Source: a virus (taxonomy: Duplodnaviria; Caudoviricetes). From it: a DNA stretch of 26,512 nt. A model generated the notes under the pieces. It saw only the letters and a list, made by a program, of their open reading frames with translations. It had not been told where the DNA came from and ran no database searches. This document shows, one piece after another, positions 1,514 through 21,152 of the stretch (its first letter is position 1; the number at the start of each line of letters is the position of its first letter). Where the stretch lies: IMG/VR virus record IMGVR_UViG_3300046788_000343, positions 1 through 26,512 of that record; one strand, written 5' to 3'. A program made the translations under genes and the position numbers.

Positions 1514-2131
1514 TTAAATGTAGTCCATCTGACTAACTTCTACCCAATCCTTATACTGATATTTGTAGACATCCAAATGCGCTTTAAAAAGCCGGAAATC
1601 TTCTTTGTAATGATGAATCTTTGGTCTTGCTCCAGTTCGAGAGAGCTGTACAAACTCAATGACATCGATATTATGTCCCACTTGCTTGGCAAGATAAGAA
1701 TAAGCAGATCCTTGCAGCATCCAATTCTTTGATTCACTAGCAGGAGTTTTAAGATCGACTAATACAAGGCGTTTCTCCTTGTCTCTGTAGAGAAGATCGC
1801 ATTCACCGGTTAGCATCAGTTCGTCATCAAAGAACCTTTCAGGCTTTTTAAGAAAAACTTTTCCTTCTTGCCATTTCTGGAAGCTAACAACAAAATGAAG
1901 AACCAAATCTTTTTCTTTTTGGAAATGTTCTTCGTTTCTTGCGTACTCTCTGATCATTTGATCAATTGTTTCATCATCAAATGGGAATTGAAGCACGATA
2001 GAATCACAAATACGGTGAACGACTGTGCCTCGATCTCCAGCACTTTTGACAATTTCCGGATCAATTCCGGATAATCCGGAAAATGGTCCTAAAACTTGCG
2101 TAACTGTAAGGTAGAGTGATTTGTTCTTCAT
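1514..2131 (-). CDS. PD-(D/E)XK nuclease, probable exonuclease partner of Bet
   Basis: RGTVVH...TGECDLL...LVDLKT...Q..AY motifs; adjacent to the recombinase. Confidence 0.8.
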   Translation of the reverse strand: MKNKSLYLTVTQVLGPFSGLSGIDPEIVKSAGDRGTVVHRICDSIVLQFPFDDETIDQMIREYARNEEHFQKEKDLVLHFVVSFQKWQEGKVFLKKPERFFDDELMLTGECDLLYRDKEKRLVLVDLKTPASESKNWMLQGSAYSYLAKQVGHNIDVIEFVQLSRTGARPKIHHYKEDFRLFKAHLDVYKYQYKDWVEVSQMDYI

Positions 2132-6989: not shown

Positions 6990-7433
6990 ATGGGGAGACA
7001 TCAAAAACACAATCTAGATGATCTAGCCGATGAAATAATCGAATGGTCTCAACACGCAACATCTTTGAATCTGATCGGCTTTTCCTCTCCAAAGCGTATG
7101 AGCGTCACAAAGTTGCCTGAATATGCCAACAAACATAAGAAATTTCGGGAGGCCTTGCAGCTAGCGAAGGAAAATATCTCTCAAAATAGATTTGATGCAG
7201 CATGTGCCGAAGTGATGCCTGAGAAATTCTATTCTCGTTGTGAAGGTCAATATGATCCGCTTTATCATAAATACGATAGAGAAGAGAGAAAATATGATGC
7301 TGATATCAAAGCTAAAGCAGAAGGCAACAACAGAAATCAAAAAATTATAGTTAAGGTGAAAAATGACCTTGCCCGTGGAGTTAACGTTCGAGCCAAGAAG
7401 TTATCAAATTCCAATAATAGAGGCTCTAAATAG
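6990..7433 (+). CDS. terS: Putative terminase small subunit
   Basis: Immediately upstream of and overlapping terL; size and MGR start are typical; assignment mainly positional. Confidence 0.65.
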   Translation: MGRHQKHNLDDLADEIIEWSQHATSLNLIGFSSPKRMSVTKLPEYANKHKKFREALQLAKENISQNRFDAACAEVMPEKFYSRCEGQYDPLYHKYDREERKYDADIKAKAEGNNRNQKIIVKVKNDLARGVNVRAKKLSNSNNRGSK

Positions 7434-9573
7434 TGGAACCAAACGCGCTGTCTGGGTGGTGCATAGGCGAGGAGGCAAGGACATTACTGCTTTTAACTGG
7501 TGCATTCTCCAGCTTTTGCTTAATAGTGGGTGGACTGCTTTTCATATTTTACCTACTTATAGTCAAGCTAAGAAAGTAATCTGGGATTCGTCTACGAATG
7601 ACGGCAAACGCATTCTTGATTACATTCCTCGAGAGGTAATCGAATCCAAGAACGGTCATGAGATGAAGATTCGATTCACAAATGGATCTCTTTATCAGCT
7701 TATCGGCTCGGATAACATTGATAGCCTAGTCGGCTCTAATCCTAAGATCATTATCTTCTCAGAATATGCTATTCAATCTCCTAACGCGTGGGCATATCTC
7801 AGCCCAATTCTAGAGGTTAATAAAGGCTATGCAATCTTTATCTCTACCCCGCGTGGTAAAAACCATTTCTATGATCTTGTGAATAATGCAAAAGCTAATC
7901 CTGACTGGTTTTGCGAGGTGCTATCAGTCAAAGATACTGGTGTATTGACCGAAGAAGACTTAAAAAGGATTCAAGCCGATAATGGATTCTCAGATGAACA
8001 TATGCATCAGGAGTATTACTGCAGTTTTAATCGCGGCGTGGAGGGTAGTTATTATGGGCGCATCATCGAAAAAGCGAGAGAAGAAAAAAGAATATGTAAT
8101 GTCCCATATGATACGCGCTGCCCGGTACACACTGCGTGGGACATTGGTTATGGGGACAGTACTAGTATCACCTTCTGGCAAGAGGTTGGGGGCGAATTGC
8201 GTATCATCGATTTTTATGAAGCACAAGGAGAAGGAATAGCGCATTATGCCAAAGTCATACAAAACAAGCCCTATGTATACGGCACACATTATATGCCGCA
8301 TGATGCGGGCTCGGGATCTATACAGACTGGAAGAACGTTGCAAGATGTTGCGTGGGAACAAGGCCTCAAGACAACGGTATTGGAAAGGGAAACAGATATT
8401 GCCATTGGCATTGAAGCCACTCGTTCACTATTAAGTATTGCATTCATCGATGAAACCAAATGCAAGCATCTCATCAAATGCTTAGAAAACTATCACAAAA
8501 AGTTTAATGAAAAGACCCAAGCGTATAGCGAAACGCCTATGCACGATTGGTGCTTTACTGGTGACACAAAAATATTGACGCATAACGGAACGTGTCGCAT
8601 AATGGATCTACCTAAAACAGGGAGTATTAAAACATTATGCGGATTCAAACCGTACACAAATCCACGAATAACGCGGAAAAATGCCCAACTTGTGGAGGTG
8701 AAGTTTGTCGACGGGACTATAGTGAAATGTACGCCGGAGCATTTATTTTTAACGGTAAACGGTTGGAAATCCGCAGAATCCCTAATGCCTTATACAGAGA
8801 TCCAATCATCCTTGATGAACTCACCCAATATTTCGATGGTGGATTATACCGAATATGGCCAAATGAAACATATTTCACTCGCGGAGGAAAGAAATTACAT
8901 CGAGATGTTTGGAAATCTGCGTTTGGTGAAATACCTGCAAAATGCCATATCCATCATAAAGACAGCAATCCAAGAAATAATTTACTTGAAAACCTTGAAT
9001 GTTTGCCCGCATCTGAACATTTATCAACAACTTGGAAAGATATCCCATCAAGAAAATTTGGTGATAAGGCTAGAGAAAAAGCAGCCGAATGGCATAGATC
9101 AGAAGAGGGTAGGTTGTGGCATAAAAGAAATGCAGAAAGAACAAAAAATTGGACTAAATGGAAAAGGGAGCCAAGGAATTGTTTGTTCTGTAATAAAGAA
9201 TTCATGGCAATGGTTCGTAAAAATGGTCACCAATCGAAATATTGTCACCCAAACTGTAAAGCAGCCTATTATAGAAAGCGTAAAGCATCTGGATTATAAG
9301 GAAGATGTTTGGTGTCTTACAGTTCCAGATCATGAGCATTTTAGTCTTTTCAATGGTGCTATAGTTCATAACTGTTCTCATGCTGCCGATTCTGTTCGCT
9401 ACATGGCGAATGCTCGCACGCAATTTGGGCGTGGGCCAGGATCGTTGACACAAGATAAGCTCAATCAGCTTAAAACCAACGCAGGCTATGGGCCCAAGCC
9501 AGGACCAAGATTAGGACCGCAGACGCCATTTATAGGCCCAAATAACAATAATCCATATTCAATGAGGAGATAG
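7363..9573 (+). CDS. terL: Terminase large subunit, intein-containing (462 aa after splicing)
   Basis: HRRGGKD Walker A, IIFSE Walker B, ISTPRGKNHFY, WDIGYGD; nuclease motif HDW|CSHAADSVRY is split by the intein. Confidence 0.95.
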   Translation: MTLPVELTFEPRSYQIPIIEALNSGTKRAVWVVHRRGGKDITAFNWCILQLLLNSGWTAFHILPTYSQAKKVIWDSSTNDGKRILDYIPREVIESKNGHEMKIRFTNGSLYQLIGSDNIDSLVGSNPKIIIFSEYAIQSPNAWAYLSPILEVNKGYAIFISTPRGKNHFYDLVNNAKANPDWFCEVLSVKDTGVLTEEDLKRIQADNGFSDEHMHQEYYCSFNRGVEGSYYGRIIEKAREEKRICNVPYDTRCPVHTAWDIGYGDSTSITFWQEVGGELRIIDFYEAQGEGIAHYAKVIQNKPYVYGTHYMPHDAGSGSIQTGRTLQDVAWEQGLKTTVLERETDIAIGIEATRSLLSIAFIDETKCKHLIKCLENYHKKFNEKTQAYSETPMHDWCFTGDTKILTHNGTCRIMDLPKTGSIKTLCGFKPYTNPRITRKNAQLVEVKFVDGTIVKCTPEHLFLTVNGWKSAESLMPYTEIQSSLMNSPNISMVDYTEYGQMKHISLAEERNYIEMFGNLRLVKYLQNAISIIKTAIQEIIYLKTLNVCPHLNIYQQLGKISHQENLVIRLEKKQPNGIDQKRVGCGIKEMQKEQKIGLNGKGSQGIVCSVIKNSWQWFVKMVTNRNIVTQTVKQPIIESVKHLDYKEDVWCLTVPDHEHFSLFNGAIVHNCSHAADSVRYMANARTQFGRGPGSLTQDKLNQLKTNAGYGPKPGPRLGPQTPFIGPNNNNPYSMRR
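8551..9372 (+). mobile_element. Intein (274 aa) in TerL
   Basis: Block A CFTGDTKI, block B KCTPEHLF, block F VWCLTVPDHEHF, block G IVHN followed by Cys+1. Confidence 0.93.
8637..9299 (+). CDS. HNH homing endonuclease in an alternative frame inside the intein
   Basis: LHRDVW...GEIPAKCHIHHKDSNPRNNLLENLECL...EH (HNH_3-like) plus C-terminal CxxC...CxxxC; true start uncertain. Confidence 0.85.
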   Translation: MRIQTVHKSTNNAEKCPTCGGEVCRRDYSEMYAGAFIFNGKRLEIRRIPNALYRDPIILDELTQYFDGGLYRIWPNETYFTRGGKKLHRDVWKSAFGEIPAKCHIHHKDSNPRNNLLENLECLPASEHLSTTWKDIPSRKFGDKAREKAAEWHRSEEGRLWHKRNAERTKNWTKWKREPRNCLFCNKEFMAMVRKNGHQSKYCHPNCKAAYYRKRKASGL

Positions 9574-13124: not shown

Positions 13125-13553
13125 ATGACTAAAATCATGCATATTTTGGAAAAATCTGTAGACGGGGCAGAAGTCGGAGAAATGCTGAAATATGCAAATA
13201 GAAGACTGTTGCATGTCATTAATAACATTGTCCAAATGAGCTACGATAAAGGAATAAGAGGGAAATATTATATTCATTTTTGGTTTCAATCTACATCTGA
13301 GGGGTATGCTCCGAAATTTCTTTGTCGCCGTATTAGGCCTAGTCCATATCAAATGGAAGATCATTATCTGTGGTCTGTTGAGGATGGTGGAAAGGTTAAT
13401 TTTGAATGGTGCATACCGAAAAAAGAGATACGCACATATATTCTCGGGCATCCTTATGAATTTGATTCGAAGTTTGTAGAAATGCTTAAAAAATATATGG
13501 CAGGTACTTTAGATCAGATTTCAGACTATGTTGTGAAAAGTAAAGTTATTTAA
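13125..13553 (+). CDS. Hypothetical protein
   Basis: ORF track, 142 aa. Confidence 0.7.
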   Translation: MTKIMHILEKSVDGAEVGEMLKYANRRLLHVINNIVQMSYDKGIRGKYYIHFWFQSTSEGYAPKFLCRRIRPSPYQMEDHYLWSVEDGGKVNFEWCIPKKEIRTYILGHPYEFDSKFVEMLKKYMAGTLDQISDYVVKSKVI

Positions 13554-13776
13554 TTACAAACGTGTCGTCTACTCCAGGAAGTGGAATCCAACCTATAACT
13601 TTCCCCGTTGACGAATGTATTCCAAATGGATGCTTTAACCAGGACCTATAAGTTCTAAAATTATATTCCATCATAGATTGCTCAGATCTTCTCCAAAGTA
13701 CAACAATCTTCTGTCCATCTAGTGGTGTAAATTCTAAGGAGAGCCACTTCATTTCTATTGCAGTATATTTATTCAT
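13546..13776 (-). CDS. DUF551-like protein
   Basis: MKWLS...P.DGQKIVVL...VIGWIPLP. Confidence 0.65.
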   Translation of the reverse strand: MNKYTAIEMKWLSLEFTPLDGQKIVVLWRRSEQSMMEYNFRTYRSWLKHPFGIHSSTGKVIGWIPLPGVDDTFVIK

Positions 13777-13786
13777 TTAAACATCT

Positions 13787-14023
13787 TTATTGATATATGT
13801 GAGTTACTTCCAAAGGAGGAAAAAACATAAAATGATCTTCTGGATTTATTGGATGACATGTATTATGTTCCGTTACCCACTCTATTTCTTCTGTAAGTGT
13901 TCCATCTTCATCTCTTGAGATCAGATTAGCAGTCGCTATCGTGTATTTTTTATTCTTAAATCTCCATATCAATAACTTGCTTTTAAGTGGAGGATCACAA
14001 TCTTTTATCTTATTCCACTTCAT
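13787..14023 (-). CDS. DUF551-like protein
   Basis: MKWNKIKDCDPP...LLIW...DHFMFFPP. Confidence 0.6.
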   Translation of the reverse strand: MKWNKIKDCDPPLKSKLLIWRFKNKKYTIATANLISRDEDGTLTEEIEWVTEHNTCHPINPEDHFMFFPPLEVTHIYQ

Positions 14024-14196
14024 TTTCTATTCCTTTCTTCGATAGCGCATAGACGTCCGTGGAAGTCTTTCATTTCCTTGTTTATTTCTTCTTTCCATCC
14101 TCGTATTTCAGATTCGAAAGATTTAACATCGCTCTTTATCCAAGTAATGAGTCCAATATTTGTTGCAGCAATCGCTAAGACGGTTGGCCAATCCAT
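14020..14196 (-). CDS. Small TM plus coiled-coil protein (58 aa)
   Basis: Translated by hand: MDWPTVLAIAATNIGLITWIKSDVKSFESEIRGWKEEINKEMKDFHGRLCAIEERNRK; ATGA coupling to the next gene. Confidence 0.75.
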   Translation of the reverse strand: MDWPTVLAIAATNIGLITWIKSDVKSFESEIRGWKEEINKEMKDFHGRLCAIEERNRK

Positions 14197-14204
14197 ATTA
14201 TTTT

Positions 14205-14471
14205 CTATTCCTTATGGCAATGCATTAAGTGCGCTTTGAATTCGGCATCTTGTAGAGCCATTCTTCCTTTAAATTCGGCATCTTGTCTTTCTAATTTACC
14301 ATGGAAGTCTTTAATCTCTTCCTTGATTTCGCGGATTAATTGCAGAATGTCTCTTCGATCTGCTGCTGCTGTATTTGCTTGGTCTCTGCGATCTGCGTTT
14401 GCTTCTGTTCTTAACCAGAAGAACATTCCCAACATCGTGACTAAAAATACAGCGAATTGTGTCCATTCCAT
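14205..14471 (-). CDS. Small TM plus coiled-coil protein, paralog of 14020-14196
   Basis: MEW plus hydrophobic helix; shared E.KDFHG.L; internal repeats ADRRD x2 and QDAEFK x2. Confidence 0.8.
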   Translation of the reverse strand: MEWTQFAVFLVTMLGMFFWLRTEANADRRDQANTAAADRRDILQLIREIKEEIKDFHGKLERQDAEFKGRMALQDAEFKAHLMHCHKE

Positions 14472-14480
14472 GTTTACTCC

Positions 14481-14657
14481 TTATTTGATCCATTGTTGCA
14501 TCTGTTCTATCAGAGGTTTTAACGCTTTCTTGACTTCTTCGTCAGGTTTGATCTGATATTCTACCATAAATTCCATGGTTTGTTCAACTGTAGATATCAT
14601 ACTGACCATTTTTTCCGCAGCCATCATGTATGCAAAAGTGTCAATCTCTTGTTTCAT
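14481..14657 (-). CDS. Hypothetical protein (58 aa, MKQEIDTFAYMM...)
   Basis: Translated by hand; SD GGAG; first gene of the leftward operon. Confidence 0.6.
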   Translation of the reverse strand: MKQEIDTFAYMMAAEKMVSMISTVEQTMEFMVEYQIKPDEEVKKALKPLIEQMQQWIK

Positions 14658-14678
14658 TCACAAACTCCAATTTTTAAT

Positions 14679-14707
14679 TTGATATAAATTCAAACTTTAA
14701 TTATACG
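14679..14707 (+). promoter_or_regulatory. Putative sigma70-type promoter for scaffold/capsid
   Basis: TTGATA-17 bp-TATACG. Confidence 0.45.
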
Positions 14708-14776
14708 TCAAGCAACGGATCATAACGACCCGTTTCATACGGCGCAATAGAGATCTCGCCAATCTCAAAGGAAAGC

Positions 14777-15493
14777 ATGGAAAACACAGAGCAGACCCAA
14801 ACTCCTGAAGTGGTCGATCAGGCTGTACAAACCCATGAGAAGACTCCGAAAGAAAGTTTCGCGGAGCTTCGAAAAGCCAAAGAGGACCTAGAACGTCAGC
14901 TATGGCAGGCTCAAAAAGAAAAGGAAATGATTGAGAAGCATGCTCAGTTGCAAGCGCAGCAACGGCAGCCTCAACCAGAACCCGAAGAAGAATTTGATTT
15001 TAGACAGCTTGAGAATGAGGATTTTCCTGACGGGAAGAAACTCTCCAAAGCTTTTGGTTCGATAAATAAAAAAATGTCGGGCTATGAGCAGCAGCTAGCT
15101 GAAAAGAATCAAAAAATTCAAATTTTGGAGACTGCTACAGAATTTCCTGACTTCAAAGAGGTCGTCACGGCTGAGAATATTGAAAAATATATCAAAAGTG
15201 ACGAAGACAACCGAGAGGCTGTCGAGAAAGCCGCTAATCCTTTGAGAAAGGTGTATAACCTCATAAAAAAGAGCGCCGCCTACCAAGCAGATAAAGCCGA
15301 AAAGACGGTGAAAGATAAACCTGTATCGCAGGAACAGAAACGAGTCGATGAAAAGGAAGGAAAGCCAAAGACGGGCAGCCTAGGGGTAAGATCCGAAGCC
15401 GTCTCTACTGCGGCCCAAGTATCCAATTCAAAGATGAGTAAAGAGCAAAAAAATGCTCTTTGGAAAGAAACGATGGCATTAGCTCGCAAGTGA
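14777..15493 (+). CDS. Putative capsid scaffolding protein
   Basis: Charged helical/coiled-coil 238 aa directly upstream of the capsid gene. Confidence 0.7.
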   Translation: MENTEQTQTPEVVDQAVQTHEKTPKESFAELRKAKEDLERQLWQAQKEKEMIEKHAQLQAQQRQPQPEPEEEFDFRQLENEDFPDGKKLSKAFGSINKKMSGYEQQLAEKNQKIQILETATEFPDFKEVVTAENIEKYIKSDEDNREAVEKAANPLRKVYNLIKKSAAYQADKAEKTVKDKPVSQEQKRVDEKEGKPKTGSLGVRSEAVSTAAQVSNSKMSKEQKNALWKETMALARK

Positions 15494-15523
15494 TCTTCGT
15501 CTCCAAATCATGGAGACTAAAAA

Positions 15524-18431
15524 ATGAGCGGCCCTACAACAACAAGCATTCTGCCTCCGGCTGTCCAACAGCAGTTGAGCATGAAACTGCTTGCTCGTCC
15601 AATGCCAGATCTGATCCATACTACAATGGGTAAAGAATAGGGATTGCCCATATAAAATTTGGCTATTTGCTGGAAACTCCTAAAGCTTTCTGGTACACTG
15701 TATGCGACAGTCAATTACAGTGTAAAAATCCAGGAGATGAAACAATGGACAATCAGCAGGAAAGATTAGAATTAAGCCCGCAATGGTTTGCAGGATTTTT
15801 TGAAGCAGAAGGATGGTTAAGTTTGATGGATACAAAGAGAGTTGAAAAGGGTGAAAGAATCTCAAGATATGTTCCAACTTGTGGCATATGTAACACAGAT
15901 TTTCATATTTTATCTTTGATTCATGACTTATTCTATCAGAATGGAATCGAATATCAGTCATATGTAAGGAAACCAAGGAAAAAAGGATATAAATTAAGTT
16001 GGCAGATACATATTTCAGGGATGAAAAAATGTATAAAATTTATAGAATTTATTACCCCGCATATGATTGGAGAGAAAAAAATAAAAGCTCAAAAAATCTT
16101 GGAATTTTGCATAAATAGGAAAAATAAGATAAATGGATTTTGTGGAGTTTCGTATTCACAGTCCGATATCGAACTATTTTGTAATATTAATTCTAAAATC
16201 CTCAACGACTACACGCCAAACACCGAAAAGGTGATGATATAGTCTGAACATACGTGAGAACGTATGAGAGGGGAATAACAAGACCCTCCGCTATGTAGGT
16301 AGCTAATATAGGTAGCTACATAGTCATAAAGTAACAGCTAGTATCCGATCACAATGGATCAGCAAGCTGGCGATATTCTGAGACGACGACGTTATCAGAA
16401 TCTACAAACGGCTCCGGTACCACTTGGTAATGGAATCGTCGACCCACCAGCGCAGCAATTGACTGCTCTGGATATTGACGCACGCATTGATTGGTTACAA
16501 GCAGCATAAGCCATGCCAATCATCTTGAAGGGGTATGAATTTGATGGTACATACCTAATCCTTCAAGAGCAGGTAGACAAAATTGCCTGCTATAAACCAG
16601 CCCTAATTGACTTGGAACTCTGACCGCGTCAAGGCGAAGAAGACAAGGCGGAAGTGTTTGAAAATAAATGATAAACGAGATATAATCTTTCCAAAAAAGG
16701 GGTTATATGGAGTGGGTACAAGTTTTAACAATTATTGTTACGTTGTTAGGTGGAATTTTTTATATTCACTCAGATGTGCGAGATATTAAAAAAGATATGC
16801 AACAACACAATGCGAGAATGGATCAACTGAGTAACAGAATTGACAAATTGTACGAGATGTTTATCGATTTATTAAAATCAAAAAACACGCCGTGAGAGAC
16901 TTAAGCGGGTAGGAACCGAAAGGTTAAGCGAAAGTCCGATCTGTGCAGGAAACGCGCAGAGAGGGGAATAACAAGACCCTCCGCCAAGAATTAACATTTT
17001 TCGAGATGAACTCGATAAAATTAATTAACATAATCCTTGGTCAACAAGTAACAGTGTGAATGCTCATAAACGAAGATCCCGTGCTCAATTCAGCGGTATC
17101 TGTCCTTGGCCAATCTCTTCGGGAAACTGAAGATCAATTGGCACGTTCGATGATGGAAGGGGGTAAAATGTGTGCTCCCTATAAATCTTGGGTGATTGAC
17201 TTGGAACTCCTAGCTGCCTAGGCAGAAGGAAGACAAGGCGGAACTGTTACTCCACGTTGGTTTAAGATTTTCATTTGTCCATATAGAGATCGTCTAAGAT
17301 CCAGAGTTTTTTGGGATACAGGACACTCTCTCCGGACAAATGTTTCCCTAAACTGAATGGCAAGCAAACATTGTTGTTTTTTAACTATGAGGTAAGGAAG
17401 AACTTGTTTAAGGAATGATAAAGTATCATTGTTGTTGGAACGCCAAATATATTGTGGCTTCCAGTTAATGTGAATCTTTTTACTTGGAGCTTTGATTTCA
17501 CGATGATCACCAGGAAAATTATCACTTAACCATTCTAACAATTCTAAAGATGAATTGTAGATATCAACAGTAAGATAATGACGATTAAGACGCTTGGAAT
17601 AGTACATTCCGAAGCAGCCTTCGCCGTCTATCAGTCCGGCAACGTAAGCAAGTTTTTCAATCATAAGGCTCCAATGTTATATGTTACGTACATTATACAA
17701 TGATGATGCGTAGAATGCAACAACAGACCGTGAACGACTAAGTCCCGAGACGCCGAAAGGTGAAGCGATAGTCTGAACAGTATAGTAATATATTGAGAGT
17801 GATCCGAAGAGATTGCTCCGCCATAGAAATATGGTCAGTAGGTTGGGAACCGAAAGTAACAGAACTGGCACCTCCGATTAACTGTACTTCAGGTACAAAC
17901 GGGGACAACCCAACCAACATTAGTCCATTGGATTGCTCAAAAGCCGTGCGCCTCTTGCGTACAGCCAATGCTCAATTCATCATGGATATTATTGAAGGTG
18001 AAAATAAATTTGGTACAGCTCCAGTCCGTACAGCATTCTTTGGTCTAGGCCACACGAATCTGTCGGCAGATCTTGACCAAATGCTTGGATTTATTAACGT
18101 AGCAAACTACGCTAATCAGTCCAATTTACTTCAACCCGAATGGGGTACCGTAAGGAACTTACGTTTCTTGCTCTCTTCCGTCGGGTCAATTACTCCAAAT
18201 GCTTCTGCCAATGGTGCAGACGTTTACAACGTTTTCATTCCAGGGCAAGAATCTTATGACATGGTTGATTTGGACGGATACTCCGCTCAATTCTGCTATG
18301 CTCCGCCTGAAATTGCATCCCCACGCTTGAGACTCTACCAGACTGCTGGTTGGAAAATGGCTCAAGTATTCAACATCACCAACACCTCTTGGATTGTCAA
18401 CCTACGTTGCACTCTCCAAGTAGCACTATAG
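15524..18431 (+). CDS. Major capsid protein (N4-gp56-like), spliced: join(15524..15631,16342..16495,16544..16574,17059..17164,17868..18431), 320 aa
   Basis: Joined exons give an uninterrupted 963-nt ORF: MSGPTTTSILPPAVQQ..HTTMG|YPITMDQQAGDILRRRRY..IDARIDW|YGTYLILQEQV|MLINEDPVLN..RETEDQLAR..GG|APPINC..FGTAPV..EWGTVRNLRF..TAGWK. Confidence 0.9.
15632..16341 (+). ncRNA. Group I intron 1 in the capsid gene (710 nt)
   Basis: P1 AUGGGU/GCCCAU with U.G at the splice site; P4 UUGCUG/CAGCAG; P3 UUUGGC/GCCAAA; P7 GACUA(16207)/UAGUC(16240); P8 with GAAA loop; terminal G. Confidence 0.93.
15745..16242 (+). CDS. LAGLIDADG homing endonuclease (single motif) in intron 1
   Basis: WFAGFFEAEGW motif; start ATG 15745 with SD AGGAG (track starts at 15667). 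Confidence 0.9.
   Translation: MDNQQERLELSPQWFAGFFEAEGWLSLMDTKRVEKGERISRYVPTCGICNTDFHILSLIHDLFYQNGIEYQSYVRKPRKKGYKLSWQIHISGMKKCIKFIEFITPHMIGEKKIKAQKILEFCINRKNKINGFCGVSYSQSDIELFCNINSKILNDYTPNTEKVMI
16496..16543 (+). ncRNA. 48-nt core-less group I-like mini-intron
   Basis: Contains an in-frame TAA; removal restores W-Y-G-T-Y; P1 UGAUUGGU/GCCAAUCA with U.G; P10 GCCAU/AUGGU; ends in G. Confidence 0.8.
16658..16686 (+). promoter_or_regulatory. Sigma70-type promoter inside intron 3
   Basis: TTGAAA-17 bp-TATAAT, 20 nt upstream of ATG 16707. Confidence 0.75.
16707..16895 (+). CDS. Intron-encoded small TM plus coiled-coil protein (not an endonuclease)
   Basis: MEWVQVLTIIVTLLGGIFYIHSD hydrophobic helix followed by heptads; SD AAGGGG; own promoter. 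Confidence 0.8.
   Translation: MEWVQVLTIIVTLLGGIFYIHSDVRDIKKDMQQHNARMDQLSNRIDKLYEMFIDLLKSKNTP
17218..17664 (-). CDS. LAGLIDADG homing endonuclease, antisense within intron 4
   Basis: LAYVAGLIDGEGCF motif; LPYLIVKKQQ; SD GGAG. Confidence 0.92.
   Translation of the reverse strand: MIEKLAYVAGLIDGEGCFGMYYSKRLNRHYLTVDIYNSSLELLEWLSDNFPGDHREIKAPSKKIHINWKPQYIWRSNNNDTLSFLKQVLPYLIVKKQQCLLAIQFRETFVRRECPVSQKTLDLRRSLYGQMKILNQRGVTVPPCLPSA
17692..17720 (-). promoter_or_regulatory. Sigma70-type promoter for the antisense endonuclease
   Basis: Minus-strand TTGCAT-17 bp-TATAAT. Confidence 0.75.
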
Positions 18432-18441
18432 GAGGTAGTAT

Positions 18442-19530
18442 ATGACTCAAATTACTACTGGAAGCTTTATCAATACGGCTTCTACTCCTCAATTTGTTCC
18501 TGTACCGAATTTTATTAATAGATTTTCATTAAGAAATCTAACTAGATCCGGCCAGACAGCACTTGGTATTAGTGGTTCTTTAACATCTGATAGGATCGTC
18601 AGAGCCTATTATACTCCCCTGTATGCAGCGGGCACCGCTCTCATTGAACAGAACGGCACCGTCGCAGGCATCCTGGCTCCATTGCAAAACGGGATATGCG
18701 CAATCAATGGTTTCACTATTGTTAACGCAGCGTTGCCAACGCTAGGACCCGTCATTGCAATTTCTTCATATACGCCCGGTTCTACAACCGTTTGGACTAC
18801 TGGTACAAACCACGGATTCCAAGTAGGCGATAATGTAAGAGTGTATGGATTGGTAAGTGCACCTGAATTCAGCGGCCTTGTCATGACAGTAACGGCAACA
18901 AATGGAACAAATCAATTTACTACATTGTTGGTAAGTACAGGTCATGCGACCTCGGTTGGTTCTGTACAGAAAGTTGGTAATGTCAATATACCTTCAAGAT
19001 CTCTCTATTACCCAAGTCTTAGATCGATTGCGAAGATTACATTGGCTAATCCAATGGTTGTAACTACTTTGGTACAACAAAACTACCAAGTTGGCGATGT
19101 GGTTAGATTTGCTATTCCTTCCGTGTATGGAATGCAAAATCTTAATAGCACTTCCAATGGTCTTCCTGTTCAGCTCACAGTATCGGCAGTTAATAATGCT
19201 GTAGGTACTCAGACTGTTACTTTTGCTAATGTTGACAGCACAAACTTCACAGCTTTTGCATGGCCAGCAGTTAGCAAGTATCCTTTCACTTTTGCCGAAA
19301 TGATTCCTCAAGGCGAAGGGAATTTGAACTCCCTCGCGGGAATTACTCCATCGCCATTGCCTTATGCGAACCAAGACATTCTTGGCTTTGCTAAGCAAAA
19401 TCAAGGTGTCAACGGCATTTTGGTAGGGGCTGGAGATGGCACGAACTCAGCTTCGGTTGGGGGTATCATTGGAAGTACAGCAGATGCTTGGGAGTGGATA
19501 GCGGAAACTTCACTTCAGTCTTTCCCATAA
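18442..19530 (+). CDS. Virion structural protein (possible capsid decoration) with two E1-FCCH-like beta domains
   Basis: Follows the capsid gene, before the terminator; SD GGAGG; repeats TTGTNHGFQVGDNVR and ITLANPMVVTT...YQVGDVVRF. Confidence 0.7.
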   Translation: MTQITTGSFINTASTPQFVPVPNFINRFSLRNLTRSGQTALGISGSLTSDRIVRAYYTPLYAAGTALIEQNGTVAGILAPLQNGICAINGFTIVNAALPTLGPVIAISSYTPGSTTVWTTGTNHGFQVGDNVRVYGLVSAPEFSGLVMTVTATNGTNQFTTLLVSTGHATSVGSVQKVGNVNIPSRSLYYPSLRSIAKITLANPMVVTTLVQQNYQVGDVVRFAIPSVYGMQNLNSTSNGLPVQLTVSAVNNAVGTQTVTFANVDSTNFTAFAWPAVSKYPFTFAEMIPQGEGNLNSLAGITPSPLPYANQDILGFAKQNQGVNGILVGAGDGTNSASVGGIIGSTADAWEWIAETSLQSFP

Positions 19531-20570: not shown

Positions 20571-20618
20571 TTTCTAGACTTATAAACACCCGTCTTATAC
20601 TATATTTAAGAGGTGTTT

Positions 20619-21152
20619 ATGGGAATAAAAGATAGCGGACTTAGTCTTAAAGAGAGACTTCTTAAAAAAAAGAAAATAAAAAAATCATGTTGGGAATGGC
20701 AAGGATTTATAATGCCAAATGGATATGGAAGAATGTCATTCAAAGGAAAAGATCAGTATGTTCATAGATTAAGTTTTGCGGCATTTATAGGAGAGATTCC
20801 TAAAGGAAAAATAATTTGTCATTCATGTGATAATCGAAAATGTATAAATCCAAAGCATTTATGGATAGGAACATTTAAAGAAAATACACAGGATGCTTGC
20901 ACGAAAGGAAAAATGAAAGGGTTTTCAAGAAAAGTTCATTCTGAAGAAAGTAAAAATAAAATGAGAAAACCTCATAATATAAATAGAAAAGGTGAAAAAC
21001 ACCCAAATGCGATTTTGGATGAAAATAAGGTAAAAGAAATTAGAAATTTATTTTCGCAAGGATTGACCAGGAAAGAAATAAGTGAGATATTTAAAATTAC
21101 GAAAAATTGTGTTAAGGATGTAGTTTTAAGGCGATCTTGGAAACACATATAA
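20619..21152 (+). CDS. Free-standing HNH homing endonuclease
   Basis: CWEWQG...GYG...HRLSF...ICHSCDNRKCINPKHL...NTQD; NUMOD3-like HSEESKNKM; C-terminal HTH; AT-rich; start GTG 20613 or ATG 20619. Confidence 0.9.
   Translation: MGIKDSGLSLKERLLKKKKIKKSCWEWQGFIMPNGYGRMSFKGKDQYVHRLSFAAFIGEIPKGKIICHSCDNRKCINPKHLWIGTFKENTQDACTKGKMKGFSRKVHSEESKNKMRKPHNINRKGEKHPNAILDENKVKEIRNLFSQGLTRKEISEIFKITKNCVKDVVLRRSWKHI

Follow-up and report, generated by a model that had tools for sequence, protein, structure and literature searches.

The 26,512-nucleotide (nt) stretch of DNA analysed here at its full length (the window; IMG/VR virus record IMGVR_UViG_3300046788_000343) is part of a tailed-phage genome, with genes for RecT, a PD-(D/E)XK nuclease, replication protein O, an intein-split terminase and a P22-like portal. 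We focus on its major capsid protein gene (15524-18431), the last exon of which matches the major head protein family phrog_1357 (E 3e-14), and on two of the four insertions in this gene: a group I-type intron carrying a small open reading frame (ORF), hereafter intron 3, and a 48-nt insertion located just upstream, hereafter the mini-intron. Excision of 15632-16341, 16496-16543, 16575-17058 and 17165-17867 yields a capsid protein of 320 amino acids (aa), 305 of which are identical in an intron-less allele (L012). All four insertions are preceded by a T and end in a G. The gene is organized as follows:

15524..15631, plus strand: capsid exon 1, from the reconstructed reading frame
15632..16341, plus strand: intron 1, group I, with a sense single-motif LAGLIDADG ORF (about 15745-16242)
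16342..16495, plus strand: exon 2, whose final 8 nt pair with the mini-intron guide sequence as P1'
16496..16543, plus strand: 48-nt core-less mini-intron ("intron 2"), with guide 16510-16522 (P10' and P1'), helix-X strand 16523-16537, terminal G and in-frame TAA
16544..16574, plus strand: micro-exon 3, 31 nt, paired both to the mini-intron (in P10' and helix X) and to intron 3 (in P1)
16575..17058, plus strand: intron 3, group I-type, at position 293 of the capsid coding sequence
17059..17164, plus strand: exon 4
17165..17867, plus strand: intron 4, group I-type, with an antisense LAGLIDADG ORF (17218-17664)
17868..18431, plus strand: exon 5

Group I anatomy of intron 3

An original prediction had identified 16575-17058 as a group I intron, and both the spliced capsid protein and the helices of the P1-P10 series that we located bear this out. 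P1 (16568-16591) forms 7 of 7 pairs, including the U.G at the 5' splice site, and P10 and the terminal G are present. The P3-P7 core with its G-binding site, the P4-P6 domain and P8 were all found, namely P3 (16597-16603/16907-16913, 6 of 7 pairs), P4 (16611-16614/16644-16647), P6 (16648-16651/16890-16893), P6a (16654-16659 with 16883-16888, 6 of 6 pairs), P7 (16896-16902/16932-16937, with a G-C pair and a bulged A) and P8 (16914-16925). P7 occurs in three compensatory forms among 44 of the 46 parsed relatives. One result counts against this assignment: the Rfam model RF00028 matches neither intron 3 nor a cargo-free relative (L005), the sole Rfam match in the whole window being part of intron 1 (E 0.001). 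RF00028 likely does not cover this intron clade, and the group I membership of intron 3 therefore rests on its anatomy, in which the lack of P2 and P7.1 and the short P5 suggest a class IB-like intron. Judged by this anatomy, 16575-17058 is a group I-type intron inside a phage major capsid gene, and is predicted to self-splice.

LAGLIDADG genes had also been proposed for introns 1 and 4. Both exist, with Pfam matches below the curated cut-off and PHROG endonuclease matches at E 1e-13 and 8e-22; the gene of intron 4, however, lies antisense and has its own promoter-like site (TTGCAT-17-TATAAT with a GGAG Shine-Dalgarno (SD) sequence, 17665-17720, minus strand), which starts at the P6a stem. Across the loci L001-L080, the single 960-nt capsid gene contains at least ten intron insertion sites, with at most five introns per allele, and these introns have related cores, retargeted through new P1 guides.

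A core-less intron upstream of intron 3

The mini-intron sits 31 nt upstream of intron 3, and the capsid protein would end after aa 91 if it were retained. Its helices are complete: 8 of 8 pairs in P1', 5 of 5 in P10', and 9 of 9 plus 6 of 6 in helix X, which it forms with the 31-nt micro-exon and which terminates where P1 of intron 3 starts. RNAalifold recovers P1' and X unprompted, with two-sided changes in 6 of 21 pairs. With P10' added, the structure leaves 98.3% of cells paired over 19 of the 21-23 known loci with a mini-intron at capsid site 262 (mini-262) and seven pairs change on both sides, compared with 33-46% of cells in slid controls.

In total, we identified 79 distinct mini-introns of 28-68 nt at two capsid sites, 262 and 267, the latter (mini-267) being located five bases downstream and found in sister clades. 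None of them is open: the length is not a multiple of three in 47 cases, and the other 32 have an in-frame stop. P10 is complete in 74 of the 79, with compensatory variants, and in 78 the match of the linker is, on average, better to its own micro-exon than to others (0 in 5000 permutations at either site). The pattern scan also returned matches without a recognized capsid exon (22 of 66 distinct ones), which are mostly due to chance, three of them being re-read as true mini-introns. No P7 motif was detected in any of the 79, and no P3-P9 catalytic core was found, whereas the U.G in P1, P10 and terminal G typical of group I introns are all present. From these features, the mini-intron would act as a group I substrate, and we do not class it as a group I ribozyme. 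Self-splicing of the kind reported for the fungal PaSSU intron of 67 nt is very unlikely: both share an outline of P1, P10 and a helix between intron and 3' exon (from a passage of PMC3160393), but mini-introns are as short as 28 nt, are almost entirely paired with exons, and never occur alone. Alongside mini-267, the site-293 introns of L510, L519, L534, L562 and L573 have a long P1 loop, one strand of which is complementary to the exon that follows and would give an extended P10-like helix.

Mini-introns are strictly linked to a full intron downstream. Among the 70 loci of the closest clade that span the region, mini-262 and the site-293 intron occur together in 21 and are both missing from 49, and the pair is scattered over the capsid tree (20 changes, at least 12 of them forced). 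Mini-267 copies, which were found with a pattern that takes no account of the intron downstream, are followed by a full intron in 45 of the 45 evaluable cases (41 by motif and 4 by eye; one of the 46 is truncated), located at position 293, about 283 or about 315. Two points weigh against a catalytic basis for this linkage: many site-293 introns of the sister clades have no mini-intron, the dependence therefore being one-way, and linkage alone could stem from co-homing.

Mini-introns might be removed in trans by any released phage group I ribozyme, with co-homing alone accounting for the linkage. Engineered group I ribozymes do excise internal segments in trans (parts of PMC2532722 and PMC4094466), and a shared endonuclease could tie sites 262 and 293 together, considering the only full-length intron at site 262 (L059, 3669-4357, 689 nt), which over some 620 nt (core and LAGLIDADG gene) has 83-86% identity to three site-293 introns accompanied by a mini-intron. 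However, many of the 49 loci lacking the pair hold other full introns and none holds a mini-intron, while the position of the site-267 partner varies but is always close downstream. In addition, helix X ends at the P1 of the partner intron. We therefore consider removal in trans improbable. The L059 intron suggests that a core may have shifted to the other side of the micro-exon, with its guide sequence staying in place.

Splicing of the mini-intron in cis by the core of the next intron is, in our opinion, reasonably likely. The chain P1'-X-P1-P3 would present P1' to the core of intron 3, in the way that larger introns present P1 across P2/P2.1. This core would cut at 16495/16496 with a free G, bind G16543, and join exon 2 to exon 3, after which helix X would be gone and intron 3 would splice itself. 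To the same degree, we favour the view of a two-for-one ribozyme, in which a satellite intron would dock through a micro-exon helix, at two capsid sites and with several partner positions, within a clade carrying swappable cargo.

The L6 gene of intron 3 and its setting

The small gene carried by intron 3, its putative control elements and two relatives in the window are located as follows:

16707..16895, plus strand: 62-aa ORF, with an N-terminal hydrophobic helix and a coiled coil, its C-terminal residues encoded by P6a/P6
16658..16686, plus strand: sigma70-type promoter-like site, TTGAAA-17-TATAAT (-35 at 16658-16663, -10 at 16681-16686)
16680..16708, plus strand: hairpin of 11 bp, in which the -10 region is paired to the SD (16698-16702) and start codon
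14020..14196, minus strand: distant paralogue of the 62-aa ORF, 58 aa, free-standing (hidden Markov model (HMM) E 2e-9)
14205..14471, minus strand: second distant paralogue, 88 aa, free-standing, in tandem with the first (HMM E 1e-6)

The ORF fills L6, between the P6a strands, and its TGA (16893-16895) overlaps the P6/J6-7 strand, in agreement with the transmembrane and coiled-coil ORF, overlapping the segment toward P7, of the original prediction. The ORF belongs to a conserved family of 47 proteins (those of 67 candidates with a match passing E 0.001), whose length differences are in frame and often amount to seven residues. In the six intron-borne copies, synonymous differences (pS 0.44-0.94) exceed nonsynonymous ones (pN 0.07-0.39) over 15 pairs, N-terminal hydrophobicity is 1.6-1.8, and 10 of 11 heptad a/d positions are hydrophobic. 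By these measures, the ORF is under strong purifying selection. A decayed endonuclease fragment, which had been considered as an alternative, or a chance frame, can be virtually dismissed: the ORF is located where endonuclease genes lie, but it exhibits no similarity to 38 intron LAGLIDADG ORFs of related loci (best E 0.19), no LAGLIDADG, HNH or GIY-YIG motif or similarity was detected, and selection of this strength contradicts decay.

Structure prediction for three copies returned a parallel coiled coil (score 0.55 versus 0.00 for the best control), with at least 95% of contacts agreeing between runs and pLDDT of at least 79. Of 30 solved homo-pairs, 20 attain the score mark, as does 1 of 23 single chains, a calibration that does not extend to a trimer job (three copies, own alignment), which may pass through likeness to solved coiled coils. 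The product is thus predicted to be a membrane-anchored coiled-coil oligomer. Profile scans yielded no family above the curated cut-off, holin and spanin families included, and the PADLOC defence profiles gave no match for the window protein, the best one in the family being ZorA (E 0.002, 9 of 47 members). No match was found in phage or plasmid records, a cluster look-up returned no informative names, and a 34% look-alike in a prophage-like patch of a 304-kb contig (L183) is uninformative. Some proteins of environmental Chlamydiae may be similar to it.

The most likely role, tentatively guessed from nothing more than the architecture of the protein and the way its expression is set up, is superinfection exclusion at the inner membrane or some other effect on the host membrane. 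The weak profile matches speak against it, as they favour lysis proteins over exclusion: among the PHROG families, an Rz-like spanin at E 1.7e-4 and a holin at E 0.008; LysB (E 9e-4, in 2 of 47 members); and a top Atlas cluster (0.92, no common Pfam) whose automatic name is "Holin family protein". That the protein assists lysis, as a BhlA-type holin-like or a spanin-like accessory with its timing set by the internal promoter, is nevertheless rather unlikely, since such matches are all weak and typical for any transmembrane helix with a coiled coil, no lysis genes are adjacent, and there are several dispersed copies per genome.

The near-consensus promoter and SD of the original prediction are indeed present. 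TTGAAA-17-TATAAT, whose -35 hexamer is overlapped at its start by the 5' strand of P6a, ranks best of the 15 promoter-like sites in 13500-18500 and agrees with the sigma70-type consensus at 11 of 12 positions (cut-off 9 of 12, at which shuffled sequence yields 12.7 sites), and an SD-like AGGGG lies at 16698-16702. TAYAAT is found 15-45 nt upstream of 5 of the 6 intronic copies versus 10 of 50 free ones, and the mean energy of the start region is -9.2 kcal/mol in intronic versus -3.2 kcal/mol in free copies. The SD-hiding hairpin is detected in 5 of the 6 intronic copies (z -1.8 to -3.9), and is gone in an RNA starting at 16693. In the long capsid pre-mRNA, the hairpin would mask the SD and keep ribosomes out of P6/P7, so that the ribozyme can fold, whereas a transcript starting near 16693, devoid of the 5' arm, would be translated. 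The cassette would then be a "moron" within an intron, run by the control design of T4 I-TevI. Several observations weigh against this scheme: hairpin covariation is thin (two-sided change in 1 of 10 pairs, n=5), one intronic copy (L175) lacks both the hairpin and a perfect -10, and the -35 is weak in two others (L164 and L166). Moreover, no terminator-like site was found on the plus strand 3' of the ORF, as would be expected of a moron, and the transcript would therefore run toward the antisense endonuclease gene of intron 4. We conclude that the gene is likely transcribed from its own promoter, and consider the cargo architecture with regulated, separate expression highly probable.

Most members of the family are found outside introns. 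Among 218 HMM matches in the fetched loci (not deduplicated), 212 are free-standing and six intronic: the window copy and that of L166 at capsid site 293, that of L068 at site 108, and those of L161, L164 and L175 in other genes or sites. A shared promoter block precedes the intronic copies at several of these insertion sites (293, 108 and others), in line with the cargo swapping expected by the original prediction, and cargo also varies at site 293. Tandem copies occur in 12 of 80 viral loci, and 21 of the 47 database members end in the tail that P6a/P6 encodes; these 21 are probably intronic as well. Intronic and free copies interleave in the family tree (8 changes, at least 2 forced), which suggests repeated exchange between them; this is a quick, weak tree of 58 columns, which does not fix the number of captures. 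In L166 (1318-1968), a mini-262 is followed by a second full intron within the micro-exon, and then by the 293 intron with the same membrane gene. In L161 (1500-2600), a different host gene has closely packed introns separated by exons of a few dozen bases, and one of these introns holds the membrane gene.

This distribution weakens the argument for a benefit to the intron, as most copies of the gene stand outside introns and two paralogues lie in the window itself; in addition, the 64 site-293 introns whose 3' end is mapped comprise 37 with a LAGLIDADG gene, 13 short ones, 13 others, and only one with the membrane ORF. Therefore, it is plausible, if on the whole doubtful, that the cargo is a real but redundant hitch-hiker, selected as its free relatives are and swapped by recombination, without advantage to the intron. 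The interleaved tree and the varying site-293 cargo fit this explanation as well. However, it is the intronic copies in particular that retain the hairpin and -10, and synonymous sites have reached saturation; the cassette has therefore been long maintained.

Small cargo extends beyond this family. The L6 content of 93 distinct introns parsed by motif comprises 37 empty loops, 17 LAGLIDADG genes, 7 long unclassified inserts, and 32 inserts of 40-400 nt. An insert-spanning sense ORF is found in 29 of the 31 endonuclease-free inserts of at least 90 nt, compared with a mean of 3.2 and a maximum of 9 in 300 shuffles, and with 6 antisense. Most of these cargo ORFs begin at most 3 nt from P6, with the purine run of P4/P6 as SD, and only one of the 28 scanned exceeds the Pfam cut-off (DUF551). 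By ORF content, introns of this clade commonly hold small cargo other than endonucleases, and the clade would serve as a vehicle for interchangeable small accessory genes, with many different ORFs of 30-80 aa. The DUF551 gene is the cargo of an L570 intron (1684-1917, minus strand), and window ORFs 13546-13776 and 13787-14023 look similar to it by eye, without a Pfam match. The L5 loop, between the P4 strands, also holds small ORFs in L403, L431, L043, L048 and L502. Other cargo ORFs may have free-standing relatives in L531 and L100, according to a classification label that is unreliable.

Taken together, intron 3 is probably both the carrier of a conserved accessory gene, likely with its own promoter, and the source of a core likely to remove the 48-nt intron upstream. 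The original view of the intron as a site for accessory genes is thus partly supported; it overlooked the frequency of small cargo in the clade and the probable role of intron 3 as catalyst for a core-less neighbour.

Elsewhere in the window, the terminase gene (7363-9573) contains an intein (PF14890), inside which an antisense HNH gene (PF13392; 8637-9299) overlaps the open terminase frame, and a free-standing HNH endonuclease gene (20613-21152) lies among structural genes. The capsid protein matches those of cultured phages at less than 29%. A host search by GTDB scan returned three loci, on two short contigs of a Legionellaceae metagenome-assembled genome (MAG) and one 38-kb contig of an Ignavibacteria MAG, which were probably co-binned with these MAGs. 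The region is present in public soil and rhizosphere assemblies (four DNA runs), and no RNA run is among the 12 sequencing runs listed for it.

Comparison with known systems

A search of the open literature, in which subscription journals are largely missing, yielded no report of a natural core-less intron tied to its neighbour, and none of phage introns with small cargo other than nucleases. If the proposed reading is true, a core serving a second, core-less intron would be a living example of a catalyst/substrate split, a proposed step to trans-acting splicing machines that has so far been engineered for group I introns. Stop-bearing insertions of 28-68 nt in phage structural genes may then be functional introns annotated as pseudogenes. 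The satellite intron is of greater interest than the cargo, which would show that phage group I introns carry regulated non-nuclease genes, a possible route to persistence without an endonuclease.

The T4 td, nrdB and nrdD introns, with I-TevI, II and III, resemble intron 3 in their loop ORF reaching the core, in their internal promoter (a putative one in intron 3) and in the hairpin hiding the ribosome-binding site, which is absent from the internal transcript. According to PMC2988022, T4 intron endonucleases as a rule have a promoter within the intron, and loss of the hairpin impairs td splicing. However, the cargo is here a membrane coiled-coil protein instead of a nuclease, and the promoter is sigma70-like instead of T4-late. 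Phage morons such as HK97 gp15 (as outlined in part of PMC3594210) similarly encode a small predicted membrane protein in a structural operon, from a promoter of their own such as the cassette is likely to have, but the cassette lies in an intron within a gene and has no detected terminator, the likeness being one of layout.

The original prediction held that group I intron ORFs are normally endonucleases or maturases. This is correct for phages in the literature examined (for example, a passage of the Bastillevirinae intron survey PMC11878797 lists endonucleases), but not for organellar group I/II introns, which carry rps3, aminotransferase and N-acetyltransferase genes (from an excerpt of PMC8393795). 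These introns and IStrons (an excerpt of PMC3984707) share with intron 3 a cargo other than a homing endonuclease. They differ in that the setting is here a phage, with many cargos of 30-80 aa swapped in one clade, while the cargo of IStrons is mobility machinery.

For the mini-introns, the nearest precedent is provided by PaSSU-type introns of fungal SSU rDNA (56-81 nt; from the part of PMC3160393 mentioned above), which are also tiny, with a U.G in P1, P10, and a helix joining the intron's middle part to the 3' exon. However, those introns keep P7, end in U and reportedly self-splice, whereas mini-introns lack P7, end in G, are located in a protein gene and have a full intron after them in every case. 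In Twort and Coxiella, the skipping of exons across tandem introns (a passage of PMC10136302) shows a core using foreign splice sites; exon skipping here would shift the frame, with a stop after aa 87. Finally, trans excision-splicing ribozymes and spliceozymes, as portrayed in portions of PMC2532722 and PMC4094466, are engineered cores acting on foreign splice sites, whereas the system described here would be natural, with a substrate that brings its own guide.

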